NCBI GenBank assembly: GCA_004298385.1
Contig: SCTX01000040.1
Location: 32,571 to 96,570, forward strand
Length of the DNA: 64,000 nucleotides
Direction: 5' to 3'
DNA from: Betaproteobacteria bacterium
Lineage (GTDB): Bacteria; Pseudomonadota; Gammaproteobacteria; Burkholderiales; SG8-39
Positions 1 through 43,856 of the stretch are shown here, piece by piece. Made by a program: the position numbers and the translations under genes. A model generated the notes under the pieces. It had not been told where the DNA came from. It searched no databases and worked only from the letters and a program-made list of their open reading frames with translations. How positions within the stretch are numbered: position 1 is the first letter of the stretch; each line of letters begins with the position of its first letter.

Positions 1-530
1 TCGCGGCGCCGGAGGTGGAATCCGCCCTGGGCCTGCGCGATCGCGCCATGCTGGAAATGCTCTACGCCACGGGGCTGCGCGTGTCCGAACTGGTGGCGCT
101 AAAGCTCATCGAGATCAACCAGGACATGGGCGTGGTGCGCGTGTTCGGCAAAGGCGGCAAGGAGCGCATGGTACCGATGGGCGAGGAGGCATCGGACTGG
201 CTCACGCGCTACCTGAAACAAGGGCGGCCGCGGTTGCTCGGGCGCGCGCAGTCCGACGCGGCCTTCGTCACCGCGCGCGGCGCGGCGATGACGCGCCAGG
301 CCTTCTGGTATCTGATCAAGAAGCATGCGCGCGCGGCGGTCCCGGGCAAGCCGATGTCGCCGCACACGCTGCGCCACGCCTTTGCCACCCACCTGCTAAA
401 CCACGGCGCCGACCTGCGCGTGGTGCAGATGCTGCTCGGCCATGCCGATATTTCGACCACGCAAATTTATACGCATGTCGCGCGCGAGCGCCTGAAGCTG
501 CTGCACCAGAAGCACCATCCGCGCGGATAG
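1..530 (+). CDS. xerD: Tyrosine recombinase XerD, C-terminal part (5' end outside window)
   Basis: ORF 15..530 is open to the window edge; catalytic C-terminus 'HTLRHAFATHLL..LLGHADISTTQIYTHV'. Confidence 0.85.
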   Translation, partial: AAPEVESALGLRDRAMLEMLYATGLRVSELVALKLIEINQDMGVVRVFGKGGKERMVPMGEEASDWLTRYLKQGRPRLLGRAQSDAAFVTARGAAMTRQAFWYLIKKHARAAVPGKPMSPHTLRHAFATHLLNHGADLRVVQMLLGHADISTTQIYTHVARERLKLLHQKHHPRG

Positions 531-567
531 CCTTCGCCTGGAATCTGTCATTCCGAGGGCAAGGCCC

Positions 568-600
568 GAGGAATCTGCTGTTCGAAAAAGCAGATTCCTC
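568..600. terminator. Stem-loop between convergent xerD and folB
   Basis: Perfect 12-bp arms gaggaatctgct / agcagattcctc with a 9-nt loop; no clear U-tract. Confidence 0.35.
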
Positions 601-659
601 GCAGAGTTCATCCCCGGAAGGGGACTCCGAACGACGGGATCGGGAGCAGTCGAAACGAA

Positions 660-1016
660 CTACTTTTCCCTGCCTCTCTCGATCACCACGCCGACGCGCC
701 GCGCGCTCGGCTGGGCGCCGATCTTGGCGATGCCGACGCGCACCCAGGGTGCGTGAAATTCATCCAGAATGATCTGCGCCACGTGCTCGGCCAGGTTCTC
801 CACCAGGCCGTAGTGCCGCTCGACCAGGGCAGCGCGGATGCGTTCGACCACCACCGCGTAGTCGATAGTATCGGCGATCTTGCCGCTTTTGAACACGCGC
901 TCGTCGGGCAGCGCGATGTCCAGGTCCAATTCCACCGTCTGGGTAATGGACTTCTCGCGCCGGTAGATGCCGATGCGCGCGTCCAGCCTGACTTCGCGCA
1001 AAAATATTATATCCAT
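660..1016 (-). CDS. folB: Dihydroneopterin aldolase
   Basis: ORF 660..1079; start set at the internal ATG giving 'MDIIFLREVRLDARIGIYRREK..', a FolB-type N-terminus. Confidence 0.8.
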   Translation of the reverse strand: MDIIFLREVRLDARIGIYRREKSITQTVELDLDIALPDERVFKSGKIADTIDYAVVVERIRAALVERHYGLVENLAEHVAQIILDEFHAPWVRVGIAKIGAQPSARRVGVVIERGREK

Positions 1017-1086
1017 GTCGGGGAAGGCGGGATGGGTGCTAGGGCGGGATTCGGATCCCGCGTAAAATGTGCAACGCATTCTAACA

Positions 1087-1113
1087 GGCCGTTTCGGAAT
1101 TACCGAAACGGCC
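1087..1113. promoter_or_regulatory. Perfect inverted repeat in the folB/plsY divergent intergenic region
   Basis: ggccgtttcgg-aatta-ccgaaacggcc (11-bp arms); function unknown. Confidence 0.2.
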
Positions 1114-1182
1114 CCCTGAACTAAGGGAGCATGAGGCAGGTTCCCCTCATTTTGTAATGAGCTTCAAGGCAATTCAATTCAG

Positions 1183-1800
1183 ATGGCGACCATAGTTTTC
1201 GTAGCCGCAGCGTATCTCATCGGCTCGCTTTCGTTCGCCGTGATCGTGAGCCGGATGTTCGGCCTGCCCGACCCGCACAGCTACGGCTCGGGCAACCCCG
1301 GCGCGACCAACGTGCTGCGCACCGGCAAACGGCCGGCGGCGGCGCTGACGCTCGCGGGCGATACCGGGAAAGGCGTGCTGGCGGTGGTCCTCGCCAGGCA
1401 TTTCGCCGCGGACTATGGCGTGGACATCACCGGCATCGCGCTGGTCGCGCTGGCGGTGTTCCTCGGCCACCTCTACCCGGTGTTTTTCCGCTTCAAAGGC
1501 GGCAAGGGCGTTGCGACCGCGCTCGGCATCCTGTGCGCCATCGACCTCTGGCTCGGCCTGGCGACGCTCGCAAGCTGGCTCGTCATCATGTTGTGCTTTC
1601 GCATGGTTTCGCTCGCCTCCATCATTGCCGCCGTGTTCGCGCCGTTTTACACCGGCTGGCTGTTCGGCGCGGCGAGCCCGCTGCTGCCGGCCGTGCTGGC
1701 GATAGCGGCGCTGCTGATCTACAGGCACAGGGAAAATATCCGGCGACTGTTCGCGGGGCAGGAGGCCCGCATCGGCGCGAAGAAGCAGGATTCGGCGTGA
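1183..1800 (+). CDS. plsY: Glycerol-3-phosphate acyltransferase PlsY
   Basis: 205 aa; 'SGNPGATNVLRTGK' and 'FKGGKGVAT' PlsY motifs; multi-TM. Confidence 0.9.
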   Translation: MATIVFVAAAYLIGSLSFAVIVSRMFGLPDPHSYGSGNPGATNVLRTGKRPAAALTLAGDTGKGVLAVVLARHFAADYGVDITGIALVALAVFLGHLYPVFFRFKGGKGVATALGILCAIDLWLGLATLASWLVIMLCFRMVSLASIIAAVFAPFYTGWLFGAASPLLPAVLAIAALLIYRHRENIRRLFAGQEARIGAKKQDSA

Positions 1801-2873
1801 GTTCGTCCCCCATTATTGTTGCGCTTCTGGGCTTCGGCTTGACGCTGGGCCTGATCCGCTTCCTCGCCCCCAGGGCGGAACGCTATGGCCTGATCGATCA
1901 TCCCGGCGGCGGGCGCAAGGATCACACCGACAATACCCCCACCGTGGGCGGGCTCGCGATCGTGGCCGGACTGGCGTTGACGGCGCTGCTCGCGCAATTC
2001 GCGGGCCAGGTGCACCCGGCGTTCTGGGCGGGACTTTTGATAGTCGCGCTCACCGGCGCGGCGGACGACATGTTCGACCTGCAACCCGCCATCAAATTCG
2101 CGGCGCAAATCGCGGCCGCGCTGCTGATGAGCTATTGGGGTGGGCTGATTTTGCTTTCCCTCGGCGATCTGGTGAGCGACAAGCCCCTGATGCTGGGCCG
2201 CTTCGCCGTGCCGCTCACGGCGTTTGCCGTAATCGGGGTGGTCAACGCGATCAATCTTTGTGACGGCGCCGACGGCCTTGCGGGCGGTCTGGTCTTCATC
2301 GCGGTGTTCTGGATCGCCCTGATGAGCGTGGTATCGGCGAATTCGGGCACGCATGCGCTCGCGCTCGGATTATTGGGCTGCATTGCGGCTTTCCTGGCGT
2401 TCAATCTGCGTACGCGGTGGCGCAGTCGTGCCGCAATTTTTCTTGGCGACGCCGGCAGCCTGTCGCTCGGATTCGTGCTGGCGTGGCTCACCGTGGATGC
2501 AGCGCAGTCGCGCACACCATTGTTCGCGCCCGTCACCGCGATCTGGCTGGTGGCGATTCCCATCAGCGACACCATAGTCTGCATGAGCCGGCGGTTGGCC
2601 AAAGGGCAAAATCCGTTTCGTCCCGATCGCACCCATCTGCACCATATACTGATCGATCTCGGCATGCCGGCGGGAGGCGCCGTCGCGCTGATTCTGCTCA
2701 TCGCGTTTGCGCTCGCCGCGGCGGGGGCCGCGGGCTGGGCGCTGCATATTCCGGAATATGTCATGTTCTACACCGCCATGGCGGTGTTCGCGCTTTATGT
2801 CCTCCTGGTGCAATCCGGCTTGCGGCGCGTAGCGGCGGGCCGGACAACAACCGCCGGCGTACACAAAATTTGA
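1797..2873 (+). CDS. MraY/WecA-family (GT4) polyprenyl-phosphate HexNAc-1-phosphate transferase
   Basis: GTG at 1797 overlaps the plsY stop (GTGA); 'GAADDMFDL' and 'NAINLCDGADGLAGG' motifs; the N-terminal 88 codons of ORF 1533..2873 overlap plsY and are discarded. Confidence 0.8.
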   Translation: MSSSPIIVALLGFGLTLGLIRFLAPRAERYGLIDHPGGGRKDHTDNTPTVGGLAIVAGLALTALLAQFAGQVHPAFWAGLLIVALTGAADDMFDLQPAIKFAAQIAAALLMSYWGGLILLSLGDLVSDKPLMLGRFAVPLTAFAVIGVVNAINLCDGADGLAGGLVFIAVFWIALMSVVSANSGTHALALGLLGCIAAFLAFNLRTRWRSRAAIFLGDAGSLSLGFVLAWLTVDAAQSRTPLFAPVTAIWLVAIPISDTIVCMSRRLAKGQNPFRPDRTHLHHILIDLGMPAGGAVALILLIAFALAAAGAAGWALHIPEYVMFYTAMAVFALYVLLVQSGLRRVAAGRTTTAGVHKI

Positions 2874-2982
2874 CAGTTGCCTATCCCGCGAAACAAGCGC
2901 TCGGAATATCCCCTAGACTAAAATTGTTTGCTTCAGTATCGGCCCGCCGCCGCAACCAGCGAAACACGAGAATCAAGGCGCA

Positions 2983-4269
2983 ATGCGCAAACGTGAATAC
3001 ATAAGTCCCGCGCTGCTGTTTGCACTGACGGGCATGGCGCTGCTGAGCCCGGCGAGCTTCGCGCAACAGCCGGGGCAGGTCTTGCCCGCCGGATCGGCGG
3101 ATCAGGCGAGACCAAATCCATCGACCGGTACTGCGGCATCCCAAAGCGGCGCCGCGCCGGCGGGAGCGATCACTCTGAAGCTGATGGATGTACTCATCAC
3201 GGCCTATCCCTCGGTGACGGCGGAGATGCAACACAACGACAATATTTACAGTACCCCGAACAACAAGACGGGCGACCGGATCCTGGTGCTGACCCCGGCG
3301 CTGCGCCTCGAGACCAAGCAAGCCGGCAACACCTTCAGCTTGCGCATGAGCTCGGCCATAGGCGAGTATCAAAATAATAAGTCGGAGAACTATACCAATA
3401 CCAGCCTCGGCGGCCTGGCCGGTCTCAATCTGGGCACGCGTCTGCGCGCCCGTGTGGAGGCCGAGTATCTCGACGGCGTGGACCCGCGCGGCTCTACCAA
3501 CAACTCCCTCTCGACGGCTCCCGACCATTACCGCCAAACCCGTGGCCAGGGCATTTTTTCCTATGGCGCCCAAGGCGCCCGCGGGCACCTTGACCTCGAA
3601 CTGGGGCAGGTCCGGCGCGAGTACTTGAACAACCGCGCGACCACCGTCGCCAGCGACCGCGTGGTCGACAACCTCGGCGCCACCCTCTACTGGCGTATCG
3701 GACCGAAGACCACGCTGCTGTTCCAGGGCAAGCATAGCAAGATTGATTACGTTCTCTCCACTTCCACTTTGGGCAGCATTGAAAACGCGTTCCTGGCGGG
3801 GGCGACCTGGGAGGCGAGCGCGAAAACCAGCGGCACGTTCAGGTTCGGCGCGACCAGAAAGGATTTCGATGACTCCGCCCGAGGCAGTTCGACGGGAATC
3901 AGTTGGACGGGACAGGTGCGTTGGAGCCCCCGCACCTATTCGCATGTCGATTTGAGCCTTAACCGGGCCCCGGCCGAGACCAGCGGCGGGGTGGGCAATT
4001 TCATCGACAGAACCTCCACCGGGGCGCGCTGGACGCACGCTTGGTCCACCACGTTCACCACCGAGGCCATGGCTTCCTACCTCACCGACGCCTACCAGGG
4101 CGCGGCCCGCACCGACAATACCCAGGACTATGGACTCAAGGCGAACTACAAAATGCGCCGCTGGCTGAGTTTCGGCGGGAACTACGCGCACACCATCCGC
4201 AATTCCGACGACGGCAATTTCGACTACAAGCGCAATGTGCTCATGCTGTTCCTCAATGCCACCCTCTGA
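2983..4269 (+). CDS. Outer-membrane beta-barrel protein, EPS-export associated (left copy)
   Basis: Signal peptide 'LLFALTGMALLSPASFAQQ'; alternating beta-strand pattern. Shares blocks with the 51913..53151 product: 'YLD.VDPRG', 'WTHAW', 'NFDY.RN.LM.FL..TL'. Confidence 0.6.
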   Translation: MRKREYISPALLFALTGMALLSPASFAQQPGQVLPAGSADQARPNPSTGTAASQSGAAPAGAITLKLMDVLITAYPSVTAEMQHNDNIYSTPNNKTGDRILVLTPALRLETKQAGNTFSLRMSSAIGEYQNNKSENYTNTSLGGLAGLNLGTRLRARVEAEYLDGVDPRGSTNNSLSTAPDHYRQTRGQGIFSYGAQGARGHLDLELGQVRREYLNNRATTVASDRVVDNLGATLYWRIGPKTTLLFQGKHSKIDYVLSTSTLGSIENAFLAGATWEASAKTSGTFRFGATRKDFDDSARGSSTGISWTGQVRWSPRTYSHVDLSLNRAPAETSGGVGNFIDRTSTGARWTHAWSTTFTTEAMASYLTDAYQGAARTDNTQDYGLKANYKMRRWLSFGGNYAHTIRNSDDGNFDYKRNVLMLFLNATL

Positions 4270-4300
4270 TAGAATTTTCCATTGTGGAGTACGGCTACCA

Positions 4301-4867
4301 ATGACACTTCTACGCCGTTTCATCTTCTTCGCCGGCCTGTGTCTGGTCTGCGCCTGCTCCTGGGCGCAGTCGGATACCGACACGTCCACGAAGAGCGAGA
4401 TGTTTTCCAAATATAAGCTGTCGACCGGCGACGTGATCAGCATCACGGTCCTCGGCGAAGACGATCTGAAAAAAGAAAAAGCGCGCCTCACCGACGCGGG
4501 CACCATTTCCTACCCGGTACTGGGCGAAATCGAAGTCCGCGGCAAAACCGTCGGCGACCTGGAAAAAATGATCACCGAGGGCCTGCGCGGGCGCTACCTG
4601 GTAAATCCGCGCGTATCGGTCACCATAGATGAGTACCGGCCGTTTTTCATCAACGGCCAGATTGAAAAAGGCGGGAGCTACCCGTACCAGCCTGGGCTGA
4701 CCGTGCGCAAGGCCGTCACTATTGCCGGCGGCTTCAAGGAGCGCGCCTCCCTGAGCAAGATTTTCATCGTGCGCGAAGGCGATCCAACGAATACGCCGAA
4801 GAAAGTCGATCTCAATGCCCCGATTCAACCCGGGGACATGATCACGGTGGAAGAGAGTTTTTTCTGA
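4301..4867 (+). CDS. Short Wza-like polysaccharide export (OPX) periplasmic protein (left copy)
   Basis: ATG 4301 with GGAG 11 nt upstream; 'IDEYRPFFINGQ', 'PGDMITVEESFF' (Poly_export/SLBB-like). About 188 aa, with no long C-terminal OM helix region. Confidence 0.75.
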   Translation: MTLLRRFIFFAGLCLVCACSWAQSDTDTSTKSEMFSKYKLSTGDVISITVLGEDDLKKEKARLTDAGTISYPVLGEIEVRGKTVGDLEKMITEGLRGRYLVNPRVSVTIDEYRPFFINGQIEKGGSYPYQPGLTVRKAVTIAGGFKERASLSKIFIVREGDPTNTPKKVDLNAPIQPGDMITVEESFF

Positions 4868-4874
4868 CGTCCTG

Positions 4875-5954
4875 TTAGCGCGCCGCCATCCATTCCAACA
4901 ATTTCCCCGCCTCCGCGACACCCTGCTTCTGCGCCCGCTCCAGCCAGAATAGCGCGGCGGCCCGGTCCGGCGCGGTTCCCCGGCCTTCGATATACGATCG
5001 CGCCAGATTGACCTGGCCGCTGCCCAGGCCCGCCTCGGCGGCGCGCTTGTACCAGGCAAAGGCTTCGCCGGCGTTCGCCGGCACGCCCCGTCCGGTTTCA
5101 TACAATTGTCCCACGTTGTTTTGCGCGGCGGCGTCGCCGAGCCTGGCCGCGTCCATCAAATAGCCAAACGCGCGCTTGTCGTCGCGCGCGACGAACTCCC
5201 CGGTCGAATAGGTCCAGCCAAGCAGACTCAGGGCGCCCGCCCGCCCCTGCGCGGCCGCCCGTCCGAGCCAGACAAGGCCGCATTCCACGTTCGGATTCCT
5301 GCCCAGGCATTGGCGGCCCTTCATTTCCTGCGCCAGCGGATGGCCTCCTTCCGCGGCGAGATCGAGCATGCGCAGGGCCGCCTCCGATTTCGGATCGCCG
5401 CAGGCCGATGCGTGAAACAGCGCCGCGACGTGCCCTTTCTGCGCCGCGCGCCGGTAGTAATCGCAGGCCTTGGTTTCGCCGCGCTCGGCCGCGATGCCCA
5501 AGCGGTACAAGCCGCCGAGCGTTGCGCTTGCACGCGCATCGCCGGCATTCGCGCGCCGGTCCAGGCGCCACAGCGTGTCGGACAAACCGGTCCGGTACCG
5601 ATCGGCCAGCGCCCGGCCGTAATCGAGGCGCACCAGCGCCTCGGCCATTTCGATCTGGGCGACGTAGTCCACCGCCAGATCGGAGAGCGCATTTCTGGCC
5701 TCTTCCATCTTCCTGCGCAGTTCGACCAGCGCGGCTTTGTTGCGTTTTTTCGCCCTGGCCTGTGCCGCCTCGGCGCGGTGCAAATCGACGATCTGTTTTC
5801 GCAGCCGGGTGATTTCAACCGCCGCTTTCTTATCGAATTGCAGGTCGAGCGCCGCCATCGGCTCGGCGGCATCTTGTGCCGCGGCGAATACCGGGCAGAT
5901 TGCCAGCAACAGCGTAGTCAGAATGCCGCTTGCGGTACGCCTGTTAGCTGCCAT
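4875..5954 (-). CDS. Sel1-repeat (SLR/TPR-like) periplasmic protein (left copy)
   Basis: Signal peptide 'ILTTLLLAICPVFAAAQD', Lys/Glu/Arg-rich helical N-region, then repeated 'A..WY.RAA.QG...A...LG..Y..G.GV' units. Confidence 0.75.
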   Translation of the reverse strand: MAANRRTASGILTTLLLAICPVFAAAQDAAEPMAALDLQFDKKAAVEITRLRKQIVDLHRAEAAQARAKKRNKAALVELRRKMEEARNALSDLAVDYVAQIEMAEALVRLDYGRALADRYRTGLSDTLWRLDRRANAGDARASATLGGLYRLGIAAERGETKACDYYRRAAQKGHVAALFHASACGDPKSEAALRMLDLAAEGGHPLAQEMKGRQCLGRNPNVECGLVWLGRAAAQGRAGALSLLGWTYSTGEFVARDDKRAFGYLMDAARLGDAAAQNNVGQLYETGRGVPANAGEAFAWYKRAAEAGLGSGQVNLARSYIEGRGTAPDRAAALFWLERAQKQGVAEAGKLLEWMAAR

Positions 5955-6144
5955 ATGAGACCCCCTCCGACGCGCCCCTCACCCCAACCAGTCGACGACG
6001 GTCAGGTCAGGTCGACATCCTGCGTATATCGCGGCTCACCCCGGCGCTGGAGCGCCAAGCCACCGATGAAGCAGAAGCGGAATCCCCCACGCGACAACTT
6101 TTGTTGCGCCTCCCATGCGGCGCCAATGACGCCTGCCGGGATGC

Positions 6145-6363
6145 TCATTTCAATTGACGAAAGAGCCGTTGTTGCTCCAGGAGGCCCGACTCTCGCGCAA
6201 TCCGTGCGGGCATGGGGCCGCTGAAAATGCGCGCGATGATCTTCCTCGCTTCGTCGTCAGTCATGGAACGCAGACCGGCGGCGCGTTCGCTCGCCAAGTG
6301 TGCGCCGGCAATATTCCAGGCGCGGGCCCAGCGCTGCAAATTGTCGAGAATCCGTTGGCTCAT
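6145..6363 (-). CDS. Hypothetical small protein (72 aa)
   Basis: Inner part of ORF 6145..6543 starting 'MSQRILDNLQRWARAW'; the upstream part of the ORF runs through REP-like repeat sequence. Confidence 0.3.
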   Translation of the reverse strand: MSQRILDNLQRWARAWNIAGAHLASERAAGLRSMTDDEARKIIARIFSGPMPARIARESGLLEQQRLFRQLK

Positions 6364-6784
6364 GCAGCGATTATAGGCGTTCGATGGAAGCTTGAATATG
6401 CAGGCTCCGTAGCGCGAGTAGCCGTAGGAGCGAGCTTTCCCACGAATCACATTGTTCGCGAGCAAGCTCGCATAGCCGCCGGCCCGGCGCCGCGCTTGCG
6501 GGTTTTTCTCCCTCGCCCCGCTTGCGGCGATGAGGCTGGACACACGACCGTATCTGCGTACGGTCGTGTGCCTGCCGAATCGGAGCGACTACGGCGCGAG
6601 GTGGAGAGACGGCCGGGGTGAGGGGTGAGGTGGAGAGGGTCAAGGTGAGGAGCGGGGACCTCGCACCACTCCCCAATACGCCTTCTGCCTACCCCCGCGA
6701 CGCAGAGCTGTGGATGATGAGCCACTTCGGCACACAAAAGGTCACCATCCTCTTGCAGAGCCAGTTGCAAAACAGTGATATTGA

Positions 6785-6814
6785 TTGACGCCACATAATT
6801 AATGTGGATACAAT
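6785..6814 (+). promoter_or_regulatory. Putative sigma70-type promoter with embedded palindrome upstream of or overlapping the brnT start
   Basis: TTGACG (6785-6790), 18-nt spacer containing ccacat-aatta-atgtgg (6791-6807), then TACAAT (6809-6814). Confidence 0.3.
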
Positions 6815-7106
6815 AAACCTTGTGATCTATGACTGGGACGAAACCAAGCGCGCCGACAATCTCGCCAAGCACGGCATTGATTTTGCGGTTGTCGAAGGGT
6901 TCGAGTGGGATACGGCCATCATGGCTGCCGACGCCAGGCGCGATTACCGCGAGCCGCGGTATTCAGCCTTTGGTCTGATCGAAGATCGTCTTTTTAACCT
7001 GGTATTCACGCCACGGGCGGGCAAGATTCGTGTCATCAGCCTGCGCCGTGCGAATCGTCGAGAGGTGCGTCAATATGTCGAGCAAACGCAAGATCAAGAC
7101 ACCTAG
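6804..7106 (+). CDS. brnT: BrnT-family (DUF497) ribonuclease toxin
   Basis: 'YDWDETKRADNLAKHGIDF..KIRVISLRRANRREVRQY'; start is GTG 6804 or GTG 6822. Confidence 0.8.
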   Translation: MDTINLVIYDWDETKRADNLAKHGIDFAVVEGFEWDTAIMAADARRDYREPRYSAFGLIEDRLFNLVFTPRAGKIRVISLRRANRREVRQYVEQTQDQDT

Positions 7107-7413
7107 CGCTGCGGAGGATGCGGCCATCAATGTGGGCATCACGGCCGACCCTGACAATCCGGAGTGGGGGCAGGTGGATTTCGCTCGCGCCGAACCCGCC
7201 GCAAAGGTATTGCCCCGCCTCTTTGGAAAGGTGGGCGCCGCCGAAATGCTGAAGCCGAAGAGGGGTCGTCCGATATCCACGAGTCCCAAGGCTCACGTAA
7301 ACATTCGGCTGGATTCGGATGTCGTCGAGCAGTTCCGCGCCACAGGACGTGGCTGGCAGACGCGCTTGAACGCGGCGCTAAAGGAATGGCTGAAGGCTCA
7401 TTCCCGAGCTTAG
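7075..7413 (+). CDS. brnA: BrnA-family antitoxin
   Basis: ATG 7075 inside ORF 7030..7413; 'KRGRP..VNIRLDSDVVEQFRATGRGWQTRLNAALKEWL'. Confidence 0.8.
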   Translation: MSSKRKIKTPSAAEDAAINVGITADPDNPEWGQVDFARAEPAAKVLPRLFGKVGAAEMLKPKRGRPISTSPKAHVNIRLDSDVVEQFRATGRGWQTRLNAALKEWLKAHSRA

Positions 7414-7446
7414 CAATGAACCAACCCTATGTGGCATTGCCGGCTT

Positions 7447-7520
7447 TTCGGCTGCGCCCAACCGGTGATGCCCGGCTTCACCTTGTGGCGCGGCATCGTG
7501 CCGCGTACCGGCCTGCGCTA
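7447..7520 (-). pseudogene. Relic of a bacterial sugar-transferase (WcaJ-like) 3' region
   Basis: Minus-strand reading 'RRPVRGTMPRHKVKPGITGWAQP', preceded by a stop. The DNA aligns with 13470-13545 of the intact gene ('LRHKVKPGITGWAQV'). Confidence 0.5.
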
Positions 7521-7582
7521 CAACGCCTCGAAGCCCCGCCTCCTGCCTAAGGCCGCGCCGCAGCGCCGGCGTTGATGCGCGA

Positions 7583-7819
7583 CTAGCCGGCGTGTTCCAA
7601 CTCGAGAATTCGCTTTGTTACCGCTCGCGGAAAGTCGGCGAACAGGAAATGACTCCCGTGGTATAGGTAGTCCTCGCCACTTTCATCCATGATACGCACC
7701 AAGTCGTCCTTGGCGGCACGCGGATCAGCAATGATCGGGTAGACCTTGCCCGGGATCAGCGATGCCTTGTAATCGGTGTTGTCTACACACAAAGCAAATG
7801 GCTTAGTCGGTTGTTTCAT
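7583..7819 (-). CDS. Hypothetical small protein (78 aa)
   Basis: Clean ORF 'MKQPTKPFALCVDNTDYKASLIPGKVY..RIMDESGEDYLY'; no family assigned. Confidence 0.5.
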   Translation of the reverse strand: MKQPTKPFALCVDNTDYKASLIPGKVYPIIADPRAAKDDLVRIMDESGEDYLYHGSHFLFADFPRAVTKRILELEHAG

Positions 7820-7926
7820 TTTTCGTTCAGGTATCTCTTGATCTTCAATTCTCGTTTTCCGATCCCGTGAGCTTCATACCAATGCAGTTCTACCTCGCGC
7901 CGGGCACCGTTTGGCAATCGGCCCGG

Positions 7927-8124
7927 TCAAGCCGCCTTCCGATCACCGCCCTCAAAGGGAATGAACCCCGCCTTAACCGCGTCCAGAATCACCAGTTCCA
8001 CGACGGACCCGTCCTCAGCATAGATGACATTAACATTCCAGTCTTGCGACACCTCACGGGCAACCGGCTTGTCACTCAAGCGGATTTCCAGAATATCGTC
8101 TTGCGGATAATAAATCGTCTTCAT
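7927..8124 (-). CDS. DUF2283-like small protein
   Basis: ATG 8124 inside ORF 7927..8385; 'MKTIYYPQDDILEIRLSDKPVARE..VVELVILDA'. Confidence 0.6.
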   Translation of the reverse strand: MKTIYYPQDDILEIRLSDKPVAREVSQDWNVNVIYAEDGSVVELVILDAVKAGFIPFEGGDRKAA

Positions 8125-8152
8125 GATCCCGTCCCCCAAGAGAAGTGATGCA

Positions 8153-8632
8153 TCAGTGCTTCCACAGCGCCGGGATGCCAAGCTCGGGCGCGAGCCGCAG
8201 CAGCGCCTTTTGCCCCTGCAGCGCCCGGCGCCGCCACCCCGGGCCACGGCCAAGCGCGTCGCGCCATGCCTGGTTGAATGCCCGGGCCTGCCCGCTTTGC
8301 GCGAAGTATTCAGCCAGTACGGTGGCCTGCAGGATATCCTTCGCCGCCTTTGCGCGCTCCGCCACCGGGCGCTCACCGTAGACAATGAGCTTGTGCACGG
8401 CGTACCGTTCTGGTGCAGGCAGATTCACAACGCAGGCGCCCGCGCGCCCGATCACACAGCCCTGCGTGGTCCCTTGAAGTGAAAATTCCATGAACTTGAG
8501 CGGCTCCAAGCCCAGATTCAGATCGGGCAACACAACCCACAATGCCGCCCTGCGTAACCATCCTGCGGCTGTTGCGCGAACAAGGGAAAAGTTGATGGAG
8601 TCAGGTCTTGCATTGACGCAAACGGCAGTCAT
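8153..8632 (-). CDS. Nucleotidyltransferase-fold (GSU2403/AbiEii-like) protein, probably C-terminal portion only
   Basis: 'PAPERYAVHKLIVYGERP..AKAAKDILQATVL' resembles the C-terminal half of this family; only 159 aa. Confidence 0.35.
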   Translation of the reverse strand: MTAVCVNARPDSINFSLVRATAAGWLRRAALWVVLPDLNLGLEPLKFMEFSLQGTTQGCVIGRAGACVVNLPAPERYAVHKLIVYGERPVAERAKAAKDILQATVLAEYFAQSGQARAFNQAWRDALGRGPGWRRRALQGQKALLRLAPELGIPALWKH

Positions 8633-8697
8633 GTCGAGGCAAATGCGTCAAGGCAAGACTTGACCCCGCGGATCCAGTTGATACACTGCCCTGCCCC

Positions 8698-9072
8698 ATG
8701 AATGCGACCACCCTTGCCCGCGTCACCAAACTCGCCCGCGCCGCCGCCGTGCTGCTGACGCTGGGTCTCTTTACCGTCAGCAGCATTCCGGCCGCGGGCC
8801 ACGCCTTTCCCGGCATTCTGCACTGGATTGCGCACATCGCCGCCTTCGCCCTCATTGCCTTAGCTTTTGGTCTGGGTTGGCCGTTGCGGCCGGCGCTGCA
8901 CATGGCGGTCCTCGTCGCCGCCATCGGCGCGATTCATGAAGCCACGCAGATCGTCACCCACAACCACGCGTTTGAAACCGGCGACGTCAGCGTAAACGCC
9001 ATCGGCGCCCTGCTCGGCATCGTGATTCAACGGGTGGCCGAAGGCATGCGAAGACCAGCTCCTCAATCCTGA
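8698..9072 (+). CDS. Small integral membrane protein (VanZ-like?)
   Basis: 124 aa with 3-4 hydrophobic segments; family call is tentative. Confidence 0.4.
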   Translation: MNATTLARVTKLARAAAVLLTLGLFTVSSIPAAGHAFPGILHWIAHIAAFALIALAFGLGWPLRPALHMAVLVAAIGAIHEATQIVTHNHAFETGDVSVNAIGALLGIVIQRVAEGMRRPAPQS

Positions 9073-9227
9073 CAGCGGTCCGGCTTGCGGCGCAGGCCCC
9101 GCGTAGAGCGCCGGGATTACCGGCAAGCGCCGTGCACGCCAATATGCAGGTCCGCCGGCAATGCGACTGATCCGCGTCTGCCGGCGTGCGCGAAGTCCAC
9201 ATCCGGGTTGGACGCAGCCCGCGCCCG

Positions 9228-9296
9228 GCGGCGAACGGGCCTGGTTGAGCCTTACGCGGCGAGACGCATGAGCGAGGCATCCATGCGCACCACAAC
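9228..9296. repeat. Direct repeat copy A (~65-70 bp)
   Basis: gcggcgaacgggcct..gagccttacgc..gacgcatgagcgaggcatccatgcgcaccacaac; near-identical to 12557-12621. Minus-strand reading '..VVVRMDASLMRLAA*'. Confidence 0.7.
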
Positions 9297-9364
9297 TGGA
9301 GGATGGCCCCGCCCACCTTTCCGCTCGATTGCGGCGGGACGGGATGAAACAAGCGCGCCGACGC

Positions 9365-10498
9365 TCAGGCGGCCAGTTCCGCAAGCCATTCTGCCGCGCG
9401 GACGATGGAAACTTCGCCGCGCTTTTCCTCCTGCCTGAGTTCGCGCACCACCTGGAACGCCTGGGCCTTCGGAAAACGCGCCGCCAAGCCTGCCATGAAC
9501 CGCGAGACCGCAGTGTCCGAATGACTGCACTCGGCCAGAAGGACGGGCACGTTGTTGCGGCAAAGGACCAGGTCCACCTCATTGCCTTCCTTGTCGCGAA
9601 TGTATTGCAGCGTGACGGCGCGACCTTCGACATCCTGCAGGTAATGAGCGTGCTTCAGCAGCATCGCCGCGCACGCGTTTTCGAAGCGCGCGCCTTCGTC
9701 GCCCGCCACCAGGGCGGTATCGAAAAAGTACACCTTGGGCGCCTTGAGCACCGCGCGCGCAAGATTGCGATGGTACGGGCGCACGGTGAAGACGACATAG
9801 AGCGCCTCCAGGATATCGAGGTACTTGGCGAGGGTCGTGGGCGACAGCTGCAGGTCGCGCGCAATCGAGGCCAGCGACAGCGGCGAGCCGACCCGCTCGC
9901 GCAGCATCTCGACGAACAGGCGCATGGCCCGGACCTCGTGGATTCGGGAGAACTCGACCACGTCCTCCCGAATCAAATCCTCCAGGTATTGCCGGCGCCA
10001 ACGATCCGCATCCGCCGCATCCTGCGCGAGAAAGGGCTCGGGAAAACCACCACGCTCGAGCAACCGGTCCAGCGCGTCCTCGGGCTTCGCCGCCGAAGCC
10101 GTGCACCATTCCCGCACGGAAACCGGATGCAGGCGCAAGCTGAAATAGCGGCCGGCGAGCGATTCGCCGCTCTGGCGAAAGGTATCCATGCGCGCACTGC
10201 CGGTAACGAGTATGGCCTGCCCCTCGGCCCGGCCGTCCCAGACGCCCTTGATGGCGGCCTTCCAGCCGCGCATCTTGTGCACTTCGTCCAGAACGACCAG
10301 CTTCGCGCGCGGACTCCAAGTCTGGCCTAGAATAATGCGGCTGTCGGCGGGGACATCCCAATTGAGGTATTGTGCCCGCGGGTAATGCGCCATCAGCGCC
10401 TTGGCAAGCGTTGTCTTCCCCACTTGGCGCGGGCCGACCAGGAAAACCAGCTTCTTGGCGAGATCCGCCCTTGCGGTCTTGACGAGGTAGCGCTCCAT
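9365..10498 (-). CDS. AAA_14 ATPase with DUF4143-type C-terminal domain (copy 1)
   Basis: Walker A 'GPRQVGKTT', Walker B 'LVVLDEVH'; C-terminus 'NEVDLVL..LLAECSHSD' (nuclease-like D..E.K with Lys replaced). Confidence 0.8.
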   Translation of the reverse strand: MERYLVKTARADLAKKLVFLVGPRQVGKTTLAKALMAHYPRAQYLNWDVPADSRIILGQTWSPRAKLVVLDEVHKMRGWKAAIKGVWDGRAEGQAILVTGSARMDTFRQSGESLAGRYFSLRLHPVSVREWCTASAAKPEDALDRLLERGGFPEPFLAQDAADADRWRRQYLEDLIREDVVEFSRIHEVRAMRLFVEMLRERVGSPLSLASIARDLQLSPTTLAKYLDILEALYVVFTVRPYHRNLARAVLKAPKVYFFDTALVAGDEGARFENACAAMLLKHAHYLQDVEGRAVTLQYIRDKEGNEVDLVLCRNNVPVLLAECSHSDTAVSRFMAGLAARFPKAQAFQVVRELRQEEKRGEVSIVRAAEWLAELAA

Positions 10499-10722
10499 AT
10501 GGCTATTATGGAGCGTATTGGAAAATAGTCAAGACTCGCTTCCAATTTGCGGTGAACTCAATCCCTTCAGCCTTCATGATCAGGCGCCCCTCCCGTGCCC
10601 TTGCGCAGGAACAGGAAATCCGCCTGTACTGCCTGGCCGCGGCGGTCGTAGGACGCGTTGTAAAACCCCTTGAGCAGTCAGTGCAGCGAGCGACCACACG
10701 ATGAACGCCGAGTCCACGCGGA

Positions 10723-11874
10723 TTATTGGAGGGTGGCCAAAAACTTTCCTGGGTCCTCGGACAGGAGAGGAAAATTATCCGGGGTCAGGATAACCGGGCT
10801 TGCCTCGGGAAAGTGCTTCAAGAACGCCCCAATCCCTTTGGCGGATTTTTTTCTGCCGGATTTGACTTCGAGCGCGTAGAGCCGCCCCTGATAACGGTAC
10901 ACGAAATCGACCTCGGCGTTCTTCTCGCGCCAGTAAAAAAGTTCTCCCGGCAGTTGCAGCAACTGGGCTCCCACCGCCAGCTCAAACACGCGTCCCCGCT
11001 GCTCCGGGTCGGCCAGCGCTTTTGGCCCGGCGGTCATGGTGCATAGGGCAGGACAGGCGGTGAGGATTTTGGGGCTGGAGGTGCGTGTCAGCCGGCCCTT
11101 TGCGGAATATTTTTCCAGTGAATAAATCAGAAACGCGCCACCATAGAGCTCGAGGTAATACTTGATCAAATCGGTATTGCCCTTGTCCTGCAACTGGCCA
11201 AGCAGCTTGGTGTAGCTTATTTCCTGGGCCGGATAACGGCAGAGGATTTCAAAAGCCTGCCGGAACAGGGCCGGATTGGCCACCTTGCGGTTCAGGAGGA
11301 TATCCTTGCCGATGACCGCCTCCACGATCGCATCTTTCAAATAGGCGTACCAGCGGTCATATTCGTCCTCATACGCCACCGAACCCGGATAGCCCCCATA
11401 CAAAAGATAGCGCTCGAGATCATAGCCAAACGCTGCTTTCAGCTCGGCAAAAGTCCAATGGTAAATCCGGGTCAACTCGAAACGACCGGCGAGGCTCTCG
11501 GTCAGTCCGGTCTGGATCTGCAGTGAACTGGAACCGAGCACCACCACCCGCAATCGGCGCGGATGCATGTCCCACATAGACTTGAGGGCCTCGGACCAGT
11601 TGGGAATCTTCTGCACCTCATCGATGACCAACAGCGCACCATCCCCCAGCAACACAGCCTTCTGCCATTGCTCCAGCAGCCAAGCGCGGTCGGTCACCAG
11701 CAAGTCATCGGCATTGGCATAGTGGTAATTGCCTGAAGTGCGGGCGAGAAGCTGGCGCATGCCGGTGGTCTTGCCCACCTGACGGGGGCCAACCAAGACC
11801 TGGATCAGCGGTGGTTCGCCACGAAGACGCGCTTCAAGCTGCGCCACAAAGGCGCGTTCGTAGGGGAATGACAT
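10723..11874 (-). CDS. AAA_14 ATPase with DUF4143-type C-terminal domain (copy 2)
   Basis: 'GPRQVGKTT', 'LLVIDEVQ'; C-terminus 'AEVDFVYRYQGRLYALEVKSG' (canonical PD-(D/E)xK-like). AT-rich promoter region with palindrome tctagta-ataa-tactaga at 11906-11923. Confidence 0.8.
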   Translation of the reverse strand: MSFPYERAFVAQLEARLRGEPPLIQVLVGPRQVGKTTGMRQLLARTSGNYHYANADDLLVTDRAWLLEQWQKAVLLGDGALLVIDEVQKIPNWSEALKSMWDMHPRRLRVVVLGSSSLQIQTGLTESLAGRFELTRIYHWTFAELKAAFGYDLERYLLYGGYPGSVAYEDEYDRWYAYLKDAIVEAVIGKDILLNRKVANPALFRQAFEILCRYPAQEISYTKLLGQLQDKGNTDLIKYYLELYGGAFLIYSLEKYSAKGRLTRTSSPKILTACPALCTMTAGPKALADPEQRGRVFELAVGAQLLQLPGELFYWREKNAEVDFVYRYQGRLYALEVKSGRKKSAKGIGAFLKHFPEASPVILTPDNFPLLSEDPGKFLATLQ

Positions 11875-12099
11875 GGAACGAGTATAATTTTATTTAAAAT
11901 GCTTGTCTAGTAATAATACTAGATGCAATTAGTAAAAATATCATTGGCGCCCGCCCCCCGCGGCTCGGCGAGCAAACGCGCCGCCTGCGGCAGACGCTCC
12001 AGCACCTGATTCTTGCCCAGGTTGCTCAAGTAGAACGCCACACCGCGCGGCGGGCGCGGGCCGGCCACGCTCACGCCGGCACTAGCGGGTTTATTGAGG

Positions 12100-12315
12100 T
12101 CAGGACTTACTGTGCAGCCCAAGAGCCGTTGCTTCAGCTTCAATCGCTGCGACCGCGCGAAAAAGCATTTCCGCAGACTCACGAGCTGACAACAGGGCTT
12201 GCAAAAACAGCAGGGTATCTGCCATGTACTCATGAACCAGCAGGTTTCTCAGCTTTCGGGCACCGATGAAGACTTCGGCGCTTTCGGCGTGCTCCGGCAG
12301 GTAACGCAGGCTCAT
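12100..12315 (-). CDS. HepT-like HEPN (DUF86) toxin, unusually short (71 aa)
   Basis: R-x4-H motif 'RNLLVHEY'; its ATG overlaps the stop of the upstream nucleotidyltransferase (ATGA). Confidence 0.6.
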   Translation of the reverse strand: MSLRYLPEHAESAEVFIGARKLRNLLVHEYMADTLLFLQALLSARESAEMLFRAVAAIEAEATALGLHSKS

Positions 12316-12533
12316 AGCCGAATCCCTGTACGTTTGGCAATTTCGAAAACGGGAGCAGGCGGGGTACCGGCGTCCATGAGAAGAACATCGATCTTGCGCT
12401 CTCCCAGCGCCAGGGTCAGTGCACCGTGCAACTGGCAAAGCACTTGGGCACGGTTCTCGAGCACGGCATCCGTTTCGAAAAGCAAGTCGATATCGCCGCC
12501 CTTGCGGTTATCCAGCGCCCTCGAGCCGAACAC
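12312..12533 (-). CDS. MntA-like minimal nucleotidyltransferase antitoxin, N-terminally short (73 aa)
   Basis: 'FGSRALDNRKGGDIDLL' (GS-x9-DxD). GTG start; the in-frame upstream sequence runs into repeat copy B. Confidence 0.6.
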   Translation of the reverse strand: MFGSRALDNRKGGDIDLLFETDAVLENRAQVLCQLHGALTLALGERKIDVLLMDAGTPPAPVFEIAKRTGIRL

Positions 12534-12556
12534 GCTGACCCGTGCGCCTGCACCCA

Positions 12557-12621
12557 GCGGCGAACGGGCCTTGAGCCTTACGCAGCGCGACGCATGAGCG
12601 AGGCATCCATGCGCACCACAA
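12557..12621. repeat. Direct repeat copy B (~65 bp)
   Basis: Matches 9228-9296; here it encodes the authentic C-terminus ('VVVRMDASLMRRAA*') of the 12578..12949 gene plus about 20 bp downstream. Confidence 0.7.
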
Positions 12622-12949
12622 CATCATCCCACGGCACAAGAACATGATCGCCGGCGTCCTTCTCGATCAAGCCATGCTCAATCAGTCGCCGCACGTCGGC
12701 GTGAACGTTGCTGTAGTTCCTGCCCATCATCTTCGCCAGCGCTCGAATGGAGAGCGGACCGGCTTTTTTCAGTACCTGTAACAGCTCCATGCGCTTCGGC
12801 GACAGTTCCGCCACCAGTTGTGCGGGCGTGGAGAACGAAAGCTGGAAATCGCCCTCATGCATTTTCTCCCCGGCATCCAGACGGCGAGCGAAATCCTTGC
12901 CTTCCTGGAAAAACCCGTCGAGGGACTGAACGCCAATAATCGCCTTCAT
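12578..12949 (-). CDS. Winged-helix (MarR/HVO_A0114-like) DNA-binding protein, putative antitoxin/regulator
   Basis: 123 aa; 'PKRMELLQVLKKAGPLSIRALAKMMGRNYSNVHADVRRLIEHGLI'. Confidence 0.6.
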   Translation of the reverse strand: MKAIIGVQSLDGFFQEGKDFARRLDAGEKMHEGDFQLSFSTPAQLVAELSPKRMELLQVLKKAGPLSIRALAKMMGRNYSNVHADVRRLIEHGLIEKDAGDHVLVPWDDVVVRMDASLMRRAA

Positions 12950-13058
12950 GACTCTACCTCCTGCAATATTCGCTGCACTTCAGCCTGAAAATCATCCATC
13001 AGCCGCTCCAGGGATACGAAGGCATAAGTTGATTCCTGGTCTCTGCAATGACGATGAT

Positions 13059-13115
13059 CTACCAATCCGGAATGTACTCATGCACCGGCAGGTTTCGCAG
13101 CTTCCTTGCGCAAAG
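13059..13115 (-). pseudogene. HEPN (HepT-like) gene relic
   Basis: Minus-strand reading 'ARKLRNLPVHEYIPDW*' parallels 'ARKLRNLLVHEYMAD' of 12100..12315; flanked by stops. Confidence 0.45.
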
Positions 13116-13225
13116 ACACGCCGAAGAGCGTCACGCGCGGGTCCGCGCGCCGCGCTTAAGGGCAGCAATCGACCCTCGCGGATTTCCCCGGTACGAATTT
13201 CGACAAAGGCTTCTCTGCACCTCTG

Positions 13226-13316
13226 TCAAAGACTGCCACGCAGCGGCGCATCATCGACAAGCCGGCGCAATCCTTCGGCCATCGCTTCGGGAGACTCCGA
13301 CAGAACCACCAGACCC
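13226..13316 (-). pseudogene. WcaI-like GT4 glycosyltransferase fragment (relic 1)
   Basis: Minus-strand reading 'GLVVLSESPEAMAEGLRRLVDDAPLRGSL*' versus 'GLVVPPESPELVAEGLRRLADDAPLRERL' at 14759..15199; abuts the wcaJ-like stop. Confidence 0.5.
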
Positions 13317-14729: not shown

Positions 14730-14758
14730 GCCGTTCCTCTCAATCAAGGAAGTGGATT

Positions 14759-15300
14759 CTACCTTTGATCCAGCTTAGAGGGAGCCTCTCCCATCTCGCA
14801 TGCAAGGCACAATCTCTCCAAGAACCGCGCCAGTACTTGCTCCTGGCCCAGATGCTCCTCCGCATAAACCCGCCCCGCCGTACCCAAGCGCTCGCGCAGT
14901 GGCGCATCATCCGCCAGCCGGCGCAATCCTTCGGCCACCAATTCGGGGGACTCCGGCGGGACCACCAGGCCGCAGCCTTCCAATACATACGCAAGCTGGG
15001 TTTCCGGATTCGCCGTGGCGAGAATGGCCCGTCCGCTAGCGAGCATGCCAGTCAGTTTGCTCGGCATCACCAAATCGGCGGCGCCAGCGCGCCGCGGCAG
15101 CAGATGAATATCCGCCAGACCCAGCAAATCGTTCAAACGATCGACGAGCTGCAAATCCAGAAACCGCATATTGGGCAAACCGGCACAGCTTTGCGCCAAG
15201 TCGGACTTGCCCTTGCCCTATACAATGGGATGACCGCGGTAATAGCTAGCCAGTTCGATCTACCCAGTTCGGGAACAGCACCGCCGTGCTAGCGGCCACG
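14759..15300 (-). pseudogene. WcaI-like GT4 glycosyltransferase, degraded (relic 2)
   Basis: ORF 14759..15199 holds only the C-terminal half ('ADIHLLPRRAGAADLVMPSKLTGMLASGRAILATA'). Upstream pieces 'VLFPNWVD' and 'YYRGHPIV*GKGKSDL' are interrupted by stops or deletion. Confidence 0.6.
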
Positions 15301-41658: not shown

Positions 41659-41708
41659 TCCCTTGCTTTACCTATTGCTCGATCTGGTCGCACGCAGCGG
41701 CGCAAACA

Positions 41709-41972
41709 TCATCGGGGGAATAGCCCGGCCTGCCCACTACGAAATAGCGTGAGGAGCGGCGAGGCATTGACTACGACCTTGTCAATCCGCATCGCGCAGT
41801 TCGTCGTCCAACTCGCCTTCGGAATATTGGAAGGGGGTAACGCAATAGCGCGATAGCGCCGTACCTGGCCGAATTCGTCTGGCGCCTGATGCAGGCTCGC
41901 GAACACGGATTCGGGAACCTGCAATACCAATTGCGTCATGCGTTTCTCCTGCCTCAACCAGGGACCGACCAC
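41709..41972 (-). pseudogene. Decayed UPF0175-like antitoxin and DUF3368 (PIN-like) toxin remnant
   Basis: 'MTQLVLQVPESVFASLHQAPDEFGQ' (antitoxin N-terminus). Another frame gives '..TPFQYSEGELDDELRDAD*' (antitoxin C-terminus). Then 'IDKVVVNASPLLTLFRSGQAGLF..*' is a toxin N-terminus of only about 25 codons. Confidence 0.45.
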
Positions 41973-42024
41973 GGTCTTTCCGGTGGAACTTGGCGCTCTT
42001 CAGTTCGACGACAAGTACCTTTGT

Positions 42025-43818: not shown

Positions 43819-43856
43819 AGCTCGCGCTGGCGATCTAAAGCGCAGAAACGGCCAGG

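Follow-up and report, generated by a model that had tools for sequence, protein, structure and literature searches.

Two Class-3 OPX/porin pairs beside one Wzc in a probably cassette-split exopolysaccharide locus of an uncultured betaproteobacterium

Introduction

Can one octamer of a polysaccharide co-polymerase (PCP) serve two outer-membrane exits and sort different polymers between them? The question is raised by a 64,000-nt stretch of contig SCTX01000040.1 from a Betaproteobacteria bacterium (the window, hereafter), and in particular by its segment 2983–5954, which encodes an outer-membrane β-barrel (BarL), a short protein of the outer-membrane polysaccharide export (OPX) family (OpxL) and a Sel1-repeat protein (SelL). 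A first-pass annotation had described this segment as an orphan copy of an export module, 47 kb away from the complete one (BarR, OpxR and SelR, followed by a Wzc-type PCP). The position is right, but the description is misleading, as the same modules lie ~4.3 kb apart in relatives. Our preferred answer, which we hold to be reasonably probable, is that the segment is the left arm of one exopolysaccharide (EPS) locus, that BarL/OpxL is a working second translocon and that a swappable insert splits the locus.

Recognition of composite translocons of OPX protein and porin dates only from 2022, and their first biochemical dissection from 2026. To our knowledge, a single OPX protein works with a single porin and a single PCP in the described examples. 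The new features here are a conserved second OPX/porin pair next to a lone PCP and a locus-linked Sel1/transglycosylase operon, of which no report was found in the searchable papers on Wzx/Wzy export.

Results

Two barrel/OPX pairs of a known kind

Domains were called with Pfam and NCBIfam models, with scores read against the curated cut-offs. BarL and SelL were modelled using AlphaFold2 (AF2), and the BarL model was used for fold matching by Foldseek. The comparison set comprised 37 loci from GTDB genomes and 25 loci from metagenomes (given below by L numbers), annotated by phmmer using the window proteins. Genome scans were run with separate BarL and BarR alignments; a mixed BarL+BarR alignment had no block conserved enough for the purpose.

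All six open reading frames (ORFs) of the two modules are present where the first-pass annotation placed them. BarL (2983–4269, + strand) and BarR (51913–53151, + strand) score 109.8 and 101.8 bits, respectively, against PF10082 (BBP2_2; cut-off 23.7 bits), and align at 36% identity over 392 aa (E 9e-79), including YLD.VDPRG, WTHAW and the C-terminal NFDY.RN.LM.FL..TL. OpxL (4301–4867, + strand) and OpxR (53288–53842, + strand) share 63% identity over 157 aa (E 4e-72), with RLTDAGTI, IDEYRPFFING and TVEESFF in common. The paralogy proposed for both the barrels and the OPX proteins is thus borne out, together with the motifs quoted in its favour.

BarL is predicted to be an 18-stranded porin of the VpsM/Wzp/EpsL type, and BarR a second porin of the 18-strand type. 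The AF2 model of BarL (pLDDT 73, moderate confidence) shows 18 long strands in addition to a signal helix. Foldseek matched it to 18-strand barrels (Occ/OprD, AlgE) and also to the PelBC and PgaA exporters, at a TM-score of ~0.5; no close solved relative was found in this search. BarL orthologues form dozens of clusters at 44–95% identity, and the exact protein occurs in independent assemblies with unchanged neighbours. BarR has its own orthologue family (49–99% identity); looking for exact matches to the 412-aa BarR sequence gave none, the deposited call being 410 aa long (P0121). Antisense to BarL lies a 541-aa ORF (2881–4506, − strand) without support as a gene; antisense ORFs of this kind are expected in GC-rich coding sequence.

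Class-3 OPX proteins are defined by a Poly_export domain followed by one to n SLBB domains, with no Wza_C or GfcC domain (Saidi et al. 2022, PMC9603273). Both OpxL (188 aa) and OpxR (184 aa) have a signal peptide, Poly_export (PF02563), one SLBB and no further domain. VpsN/VpsM is an example of a composite translocon made of such a short D1D2 OPX protein and a β-barrel (PMC9601211). In the Protein Data Bank, OpxL and OpxR alike match best to the polysaccharide export protein 9n9a_A (186 residues), aligned through the terminal ESFF. In WzaB of Myxococcus xanthus, binding of the porin WzpB requires the terminal Ser-Phe-Phe, and so does secretion (Mellouk et al. 2026, PMC12819527). Both window proteins end in Phe-Phe (…ESFF), and SFF is invariant in all of the collected OPX proteins (53/53). 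The OPX gene follows the barrel gene in every locus with enough sequence.

WzaB must also be lipidated, and it binds its PCP through an Arg106-Arg107 loop motif (PMC12819527). OpxR has a signal peptidase I (SPI) signal peptide without Cys (MGRRVWYVLAIGLLVFLPRLVHA/QAG), and OpxL contains Cys residues but no canonical lipobox, so that lipidation is indicated for neither. SPI secretion is found in ~30% of Class-3 OPX proteins (PMC9603273), so the missing lipobox does not exclude Class-3 membership. The twin-arginine motif was also considered as an indicator of a Wzc-binding OPX protein, and was uninformative because it is absent from both copies. On sequence grounds, both pairs are of a known kind, namely a Class-3 OPX protein with a VpsM/Wzp-type porin, predicted to form a composite translocon.

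The two pairs in one locus

The left pair is preceded by plsY and then by the gene for a WecA-like polyprenyl-phosphate sugar-1-phosphate transferase (GT4; 1797–2873, + strand), which overlaps the plsY stop codon by 4 nt and is called as a 358-aa gene in independent assemblies. GT4 passes PF00953 (119 bits) and misses the TIGR02380 WecA cut-off (237.7 vs 326 bits), hence ‘WecA-like’. On the other side, OpxL and SelL (4875–5954, − strand) are convergent, with 7 nt between their stop codons. At the far end of the window, SelR (49986–51386, − strand) points away from BarR and in the same direction as the gene of an MltD-like, SLT-domain lytic transglycosylase (48567–49982, − strand).

These two ends meet in relatives. 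In L043, where every gene is orthologous at 62–85% aa identity, the order is plsY, GT4, BarL, OpxL (+ strand), then SelL, SLT, SelR (− strand), then BarR, OpxR, Wzc, CpsB (+ strand), with 4.3 kb between the two barrel/OPX pairs. The pairs lie ~4–7 kb apart in L043, L054, L058 and L069, flanking a reverse SelR-MltD-SelL operon of which SelR is the first gene and SelL the last; in L058 the same reverse operon stands beside BarR. Two of these loci, L054 (1–20000) and L069 (1–14101), have two MltD-like genes, three Sel1 genes and two barrel/OPX pairs, ordered GT4, BarL, OpxL, MltD', SelB' (+ strand), SelL, MltD, SelR (− strand) and BarR onward (+ strand). In the window, by comparison, ~42.6 kb lie between MltD and SelL, and the block between these two genes accounts for the apparent 47-kb separation of the modules.

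Origin of the left pair and selection on it

Other relatives have a single module. L031 reads plsY, GT4, SelA, barrel, OPX, Wzc, CpsB, U750, MltD, SelB, WzyC; L005 resembles it, and L016 and L018 have the same start, with a GT4-linked Sel1 gene, up to their contig ends. The Sulfuritalea/Rhodocyclales loci L029 and L032–34 read GT4, SelA, MltD, SelB, barrel, OPX, Wzc, CpsB. GT4 stands first in the locus, a conserved position that it also occupies in L004–L018, L031, L043 and L054. The WecA-like gene does adjoin the left pair, as had been noted, but it is not the primer of the left module: it is the first gene of the ancestral single-module locus.

A neighbour-joining tree of the barrels puts BarL and BarR in two separate, old clades, both with single-module relatives; the single-module barrels of the L031 type are basal in the BarL clade. 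BarL/OpxL is closer than the right pair to the single-copy ancestral type. The position in the BarL clade and the comparison of L031 with the left half of L054 indicate that the left pair is the conservative descendant of a complete module minus Wzc, CpsB and U750. A recent tandem duplication was considered and rejected, since the dS between paralogues is saturated (~1.5) and the barrels fall in separate old clades. The first-pass annotation had proposed to compute dN/dS and identities for the paralogue pairs; the pairs are saturated at synonymous sites, and the identities are those given above for the barrels and the OPX proteins and below for the Sel1 proteins.

Orthologues were compared as well (dN/dS by the Nei-Gojobori method throughout). 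Against L043, dN/dS is 0.23–0.31 for GT4, BarL, OpxL and SelL, and 0.16–0.27 for MltD, SelR, BarR, OpxR, Wzc and CpsB. Against the 92% relative L006, the left genes give 0.22–0.46. By gene, the values are 0.31–0.46 for BarL and 0.22–0.25 for OpxL. The left module is under purifying selection, and its ORFs are intact. The dS against L006 also climbs stepwise, from 0.09 in GT4 and BarL to 0.23 in OpxL and 0.45 in SelL, which indicates recombination within the locus and a mosaic left module.

These values bear directly on the suggestion of a ‘diverging spare’, under which the left copy would be redundant or in decay and without current function. The left pair indeed has no adjacent PCP or phosphatase, and its dN/dS is slightly higher than that of the right module (0.23–0.31 vs 0.16–0.20). 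Nevertheless, these ratios are well below 1, and a check of the left copies for inactivating lesions found none. In addition, the ORFs are intact, orthologues fall in dozens of clusters at 44–95% identity, the terminal SFF and the ancestral OPX loop (described below) are invariant, and BarL and OpxL are nearer than the right pair to the single-copy type. With purifying selection (0.22–0.46) and no lesions, the spare-copy proposal is rejected, and we regard loss of function as very improbable.

A swappable insert between SelL and MltD

The block that separates the two arms consists of a biosynthesis cassette between two toxin-antitoxin islands. The Wzx/Wzy-type cassette (13317–41658, − strand; Pfam and NCBIfam calls) encodes WcaJ (13317–14747, − strand; TIGR03023 540.7 bits, above the cut-off of 410.75), a polytopic 464-aa putative Wzy recognised by its transmembrane (TM) profile (25229–26623, − strand) and a Wzx flippase (38419–39882, − strand; Pfam/NCBIfam), in addition to glycosyltransferases, sugar-nucleotide enzymes, methyltransferases and a DegT aminotransferase. 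The GC content at third codon positions (GC3) is 0.53–0.69 in most cassette genes, against 0.71–0.88 in the flanking locus genes.

The flanks are 99.1–99.3% identical in another assembly, where L001 corresponds to window 1–14260 and L072 to 44481–58997 (the latter at 99.3%). To the left of window position 44481, L072 (1–2548) carries unrelated genes (DUF5615, APS kinase, nucleotidyltransferase and epimerase). The cassette has thus been exchanged between near-identical strains, with the breakpoint inside a toxin-antitoxin island; the right portion, ~41.7–44.5 kb, is replaced in the 99%-identical strain. Other relatives have the biosynthesis genes elsewhere: in L004 they follow SelB', and in L043 they follow CpsB. 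Insertion and exchange of the cassette are observed between strains and among relatives.

The left island (5955–13316, no strand assigned), made up of toxin-antitoxin and junk genes, contains BrnT/BrnA, DUF2283, NTP_transf_8, two AAA_14/DUF4143 and MarR-like genes. The right island (41700–48566, no strand assigned) contains PIN, ParE/RHH, DUF433, Gp49/HTH, MarR and ParD/PIN_3 genes and has internal duplications (D4, D13 and D14). The two MarR-like genes that flank the cassette are not paralogues. Both islands are dense and include small genes that look defence-related. Island content varies among close relatives (including L070 and L071), which have HipA, MazE/PIN or HicAB instead.

Several gene remnants lie in the left island and the adjoining part of the cassette. 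A 3'-end fragment of the WcaJ/phosphoglycosyltransferase (PGT) gene at 7439–7521 matches 13460–13542 (repeat D10, 81% identity), 6 kb from the gene; a GT1 gene is truncated to 146 aa (14759–15199), and GT1 3' ends are duplicated (13239–13315 and 14895–14971). Two or three extra WcaJ 3' fragments are found in L006 and L070. From their sequences, we read the PGT fragment, the truncated GT1 gene and the duplicated GT1 ends as recombination scars. No tRNA genes or Rfam families marking an integration site were found in the window.

A GC-rich repeat of ~150 nt occurs in three copies (46322–46471, 49677–49823 and 56132–56263), with a sub-module inverted in the third. Two of the copies lie in intergenic spacers, SelR-MltD and Wzc-CpsB. 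Its predicted folding is no better than that of shuffled sequences (z −1.18), and it has no Rfam match.

Sel1 proteins and the MltD-like transglycosylase

Both Sel1 proteins have SPI-looking signal peptides and Sel1-repeat (PF08238) solenoids, SelL scoring 75.5 bits and SelR, with at least seven repeats, 215.6 bits. They had been presented as a third pair of paralogues. Both are indeed Sel1-repeat proteins encoded on the minus strand, but the match between them is at the level of the repeat only (many alternative registers, 27–40% identity, best E 4e-16), and they represent two orthologous families separated by score: SelL (family A) falls in the GT4-linked family, and SelR (family B) in the MltD-linked family.

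SelL orthologues are 54–99% identical and share four invariant Cys residues. The AF2 model of SelL (pLDDT 91) shows a long helical hairpin and a Sel1-like-repeat solenoid with paired helices, and its top fold matches are the Sel1 proteins 6ok3, LpnE, LceB and HcpC. The SelR ORF runs to 51449, with Met22 as the likely start; the L043 orthologue, 62% identical, starts MLYFRN. The C-terminus of SelR (49986–50015) reads …FGKLKFGKF, and that of the L043 orthologue …FGAPKFGKF, a conserved aromatic/basic tail.

The neighbouring transglycosylase matches PF01464 (88.5 bits). It scores 233 bits against NF008050, short of the cut-off of 508, and the window protein has the SLT domain only, so it is called an MltD-like SLT-domain transglycosylase; the L005 orthologue also carries LysM. 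The ~150-nt repeat lengthens its ORF at the 5' end. Since the ORF crosses the repeat copy at 49677–49823, the true start is probably near 49650–49710; the L043 orthologue has 360 aa and is 73% identical.

Does each barrel/OPX pair have its own Sel1 partner, as a third translocon component in the manner of AlgK/AlgE? The linkage expected by the first-pass annotation is present in other genomes: a Sel1 gene lies within 8 kb (≤8 kb) in 17 of the 25 barrels that have at least 4 kb of sequence on both sides. A divergent SelR stands upstream of BarR in nearly all loci of the BarR clade (at least 11 loci), both proteins have signal peptides, and AlgK is among the fold matches (E 1.6e-5), along with weak AlgK model matches. 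The gene neighbourhoods speak otherwise. MltD-like genes adjoin 32 of 48 Sel1 genes and GT4 adjoins 8 of 48, so that the Sel1 genes are not specifically neighbours of barrels. Loci with a single pair (L031, L005, L029 and L032–34) carry both Sel1 families, compact loci have both Sel1 genes in one transglycosylase operon, and in L054 and L069 two pairs are accompanied by three Sel1 genes. The remaining 8 of the 25 well-flanked barrels, from Lysobacterales, Xanthomonadales and other Burkholderiales outside the BarL/BarR orthologue groups, have no Sel1 gene, and these loci keep barrel, OPX and (except L060) Wzc. Neither of the Class-3 OPX/porin papers PMC9601211 and PMC9603273 mentions Sel1 in its text. 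With both families in single-pair loci and none in distant loci, ‘one Sel1 per translocon’ is unsupported and the linkage is clade-wide only. As far as the sequences go, Sel1 linkage to the locus appears conserved within a clade, and a dedicated Sel1 subunit for each translocon is unlikely. Identity with AlgK itself was rejected, given NF038194 scores of 38.9 bits for SelL and 47 bits for SelR against a cut-off of 700, and given that generic Sel1 proteins are better fold matches.

Conversely, 24 of 28 MltD-like genes adjoin a Sel1 gene. GT4 and SelA overlap by 4 nt in L005 and L016 (in the latter from ORF coordinates). Our reading is that the two Sel1 proteins belong with the MltD-like transglycosylase, and that most likely they would direct local peptidoglycan cutting or hold it in check, allowing an envelope-spanning export machine to assemble. 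EnhC is a Sel1-repeat protein and offers a parallel. According to the account of Liu et al. 2012 cited in PMC7154730, periplasmic EnhC of Legionella impairs the lytic transglycosylase Slt. A literature search found no report tying Sel1 and a lytic transglycosylase to exopolysaccharide, and a search for Sel1 with Wzc gave only a cyanobacterial survey.

The same tight adjacency (24/28) tells against an alternative in which the Sel1 proteins are periplasmic EPS regulators that bind a sensor kinase as ExoR does. Such a role would fit the use of Sel1 solenoids as generic protein-binding scaffolds, and SelR weakly matches the ExoR model (E 4e-13, 49 bits). Yet the cut-off of 450 is not approached, and the conserved core contains no two-component system, which leaves a regulatory function improbable beside the association with the transglycosylase.

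The single PCP and the right border

Of the two modules, only the right one continues into a PCP and a phosphatase, as originally described. The PCP (Wzc; 53854–56097, + strand) is of the PCP-2a type with a bacterial tyrosine kinase (BY-kinase) domain: it matches Wzz (PF02706), GNVR (PF13807) and the tyrosine autokinase model TIGR01007 (165 bits, cut-off 108), and has TM segments at ~36–60 and 448–477 and a Tyr-rich tail. The phosphatase is of the CpsB-type PHP class (56352–57092, + strand; PF19567, 136 bits). In agreement with the first-pass annotation, the window has two barrel/OPX export pairs and one Wzc; no second PCP was found in its 64 kb.

Loop differences occur both in the OPX proteins and in Wzc. 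OpxL keeps an ancestral, invariant loop, GL-RGRYLVNP, aligned with the PCP-binding loop of WzaB, and OpxR has a one-residue insertion in that loop (GLIEKRYLLTP; 53500–53560). Wzc proteins of the BarR clade lack one residue (54580–54640) in a loop about halfway along the periplasmic domain; L063 is an exception to this pattern.

Beyond CpsB lies a conserved 750-aa locus protein, termed U750 (57810–60062, + strand). It contains ~500 residues of Ala/Thr/Gln-rich low complexity, built from degenerate DNA repeats, together with at least five PVVAP repeats and a C-terminal CGGSPC. The window protein matches no Pfam or NCBIfam family; its L005 orthologue is annotated FecR, with a FecR domain at the N-terminus. 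U750 is kept beside CpsB or WzyC in many loci. The conserved right border is the gene of a Wzy_C membrane protein, O-antigen ligase/polymerase-like (60121–61614, + strand; PF04932, 83.7 bits; ~11 TM segments), which is kept in L019–L036, L050, L054 and L062 and beyond which lie unrelated genes. L060 (5164–7087) has a BarR-clade barrel/OPX pair that no Wzc follows; 4 kb upstream of that pair is a CpsB-like gene, and downstream are U750 and WzyC.

Discussion

A second exit in a split locus

We propose that a single EPS locus extends from plsY/GT4 (~1.8 kb) to the Wzy_C gene (~61.6 kb) in this uncultured betaproteobacterium. By analogy with WzaB, the C-terminal Phe-Phe of periplasmic OpxL would attach it to the 18-stranded BarL, while OpxR/BarR would form the other translocon, the OPX protein again docking on the adjacent porin through its terminal Phe-Phe. 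The left pair would derive from a once-complete module (GT4, SelA, barrel, OPX, Wzc, CpsB, U750, MltD, SelB, WzyC) that lost its own Wzc and phosphatase after being joined to a second, anciently diverged module. Having lost its Wzc, the left pair must on this scheme work with a PCP in trans, the most likely candidate being Wzc 53854–56097, or otherwise a PCP outside the window. The ~42.6-kb block of cassette and toxin-antitoxin islands would have been placed between MltD and SelL.

Several points weigh against this proposal. We infer the contact of OpxL with the window Wzc, and hence the sharing of Wzc by OpxL; our view covers 64 kb of the genome, and another PCP may lie elsewhere. The Arg106-Arg107 motif of WzaB is replaced by V-N in OpxL and L-T in OpxR at the aligned positions. 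The insertion in OpxR and the deletion in Wzc could hint that Wzc is co-adapted to OpxR and not to OpxL, although the deletion loop is only a candidate equivalent of the WzcB LGEG motif or OPX-contacting apex. The confidence of the BarL model is only moderate (pLDDT 73). The role suggested for the Sel1 proteins and the transglycosylase is drawn from gene linkage and one precedent. Sel1 proteins may also act as regulators, and there are weak ExoR-like and MotX-like matches.

The differing OPX loops are relevant also to a further alternative, in which two products leave through two exits: a polymer primed by GT4, possibly involving Wzy_C, through BarL/OpxL, and a polymer primed by WcaJ through BarR/OpxR, with Wzc serving both exits or a second PCP lying beyond the window. 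The window does encode two initiating transferases (GT4 and WcaJ), two Wzy-like membrane proteins and two OPX/porin pairs, and both pairs are kept across relatives of 62–85% identity. Against this, there is one Wzx and one PCP in the window, GT4 and Wzy_C occur in single-pair loci as well and so are not tied to a second exit, and the present analysis assigns no substrate to either pair. Export of two polymers through separate exits is thus possible, but appears less probable than our favoured reading of a split locus with a working second translocon.

Within that favoured reading, we tentatively picture, for a clade of uncultured Betaproteobacteria, a branched machine in which one Wzc serves two non-identical OPX/porin exits and a dedicated transglycosylase, controlled or positioned by two or three Sel1 proteins, eases its passage across the cell wall. 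The occurrence of the Sel1/transglycosylase operon across many lineages points to a peptidoglycan-remodelling step that is missing from current models. The locus also illustrates an annotation trap: what looked like a complete system and a stray copy is better described as two modules of one locus split by a cassette.

Comparison with known systems

In capsule loci of the K-locus type, a variable biosynthesis region lies between conserved export genes. The window resembles them in that its flanks are conserved (99% between strains) around an exchanged biosynthesis block in which most genes have lower GC3, and differs from them in that the cassette lies inside an accessory operon (MltD/SelL), is bordered by toxin-antitoxin islands and changes position among relatives.

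The best-scoring named models for the barrels and OPX proteins are those of the XrtB/PEP-CTERM EpsL/EpsE/EpsF/EpsG and XrtA pepcterm_export systems (TIGR03014, TIGR03028, TIGR03027 and TIGR03017). XrtB/PEP-CTERM systems have a similar order of barrel, OPX and chain-length determinant/kinase, but the window contains no exosortase. EpsL/TIGR03014, with its cut-off of 275 bits, gave 58.7 and 70.4 for BarL and BarR, and membership was rejected, as was PEP-CTERM/exosortase membership in general, every score being below its cut-off (pepcterm_export 65.6 and 66 vs 180). The window proteins are relatives of these families, not members.

AlgK/AlgE, and also PelB, BcsC and PgaA, share with the window a periplasmic repeat solenoid genetically linked to an 18-strand porin. 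Unlike AlgK, the window Sel1 proteins have no clear lipobox, and their genes pair with a transglycosylase or GT4 and not with the porin; the pathway here is of the Wzx/Wzy type, with OPX and PCP, and not synthase-dependent. What the window shares with EnhC/Slt, as far as that cited account goes, is the functional pairing of a periplasmic protein and a lytic transglycosylase with an SLT domain. The gene of EnhC lies outside any polysaccharide locus, and the parallel is a mechanistic one only.

The closest counterparts are the composite translocons WzaB/WzpB, EpsY/EpsX and ExoA/ExoB of M. xanthus and VpsN/VpsM of Vibrio cholerae, in which, as in the window, a short OPX gene stands directly beside a PF10082-type barrel (PMC9601211, PMC9603273, PMC12819527). 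Both window OPX proteins end in Ser-Phe-Phe, as WzaB does, and the right module is followed by a PCP-2a/BY-kinase in a Wzx/Wzy pathway context. They differ from WzaB in that OpxR is not a lipoprotein, the lipobox of OpxL is doubtful and Arg106-Arg107 is absent. The locus as a whole differs from the described Class-3 translocons in having a dedicated Sel1/transglycosylase operon, and from composite translocons in having two non-identical OPX/porin pairs with one PCP.

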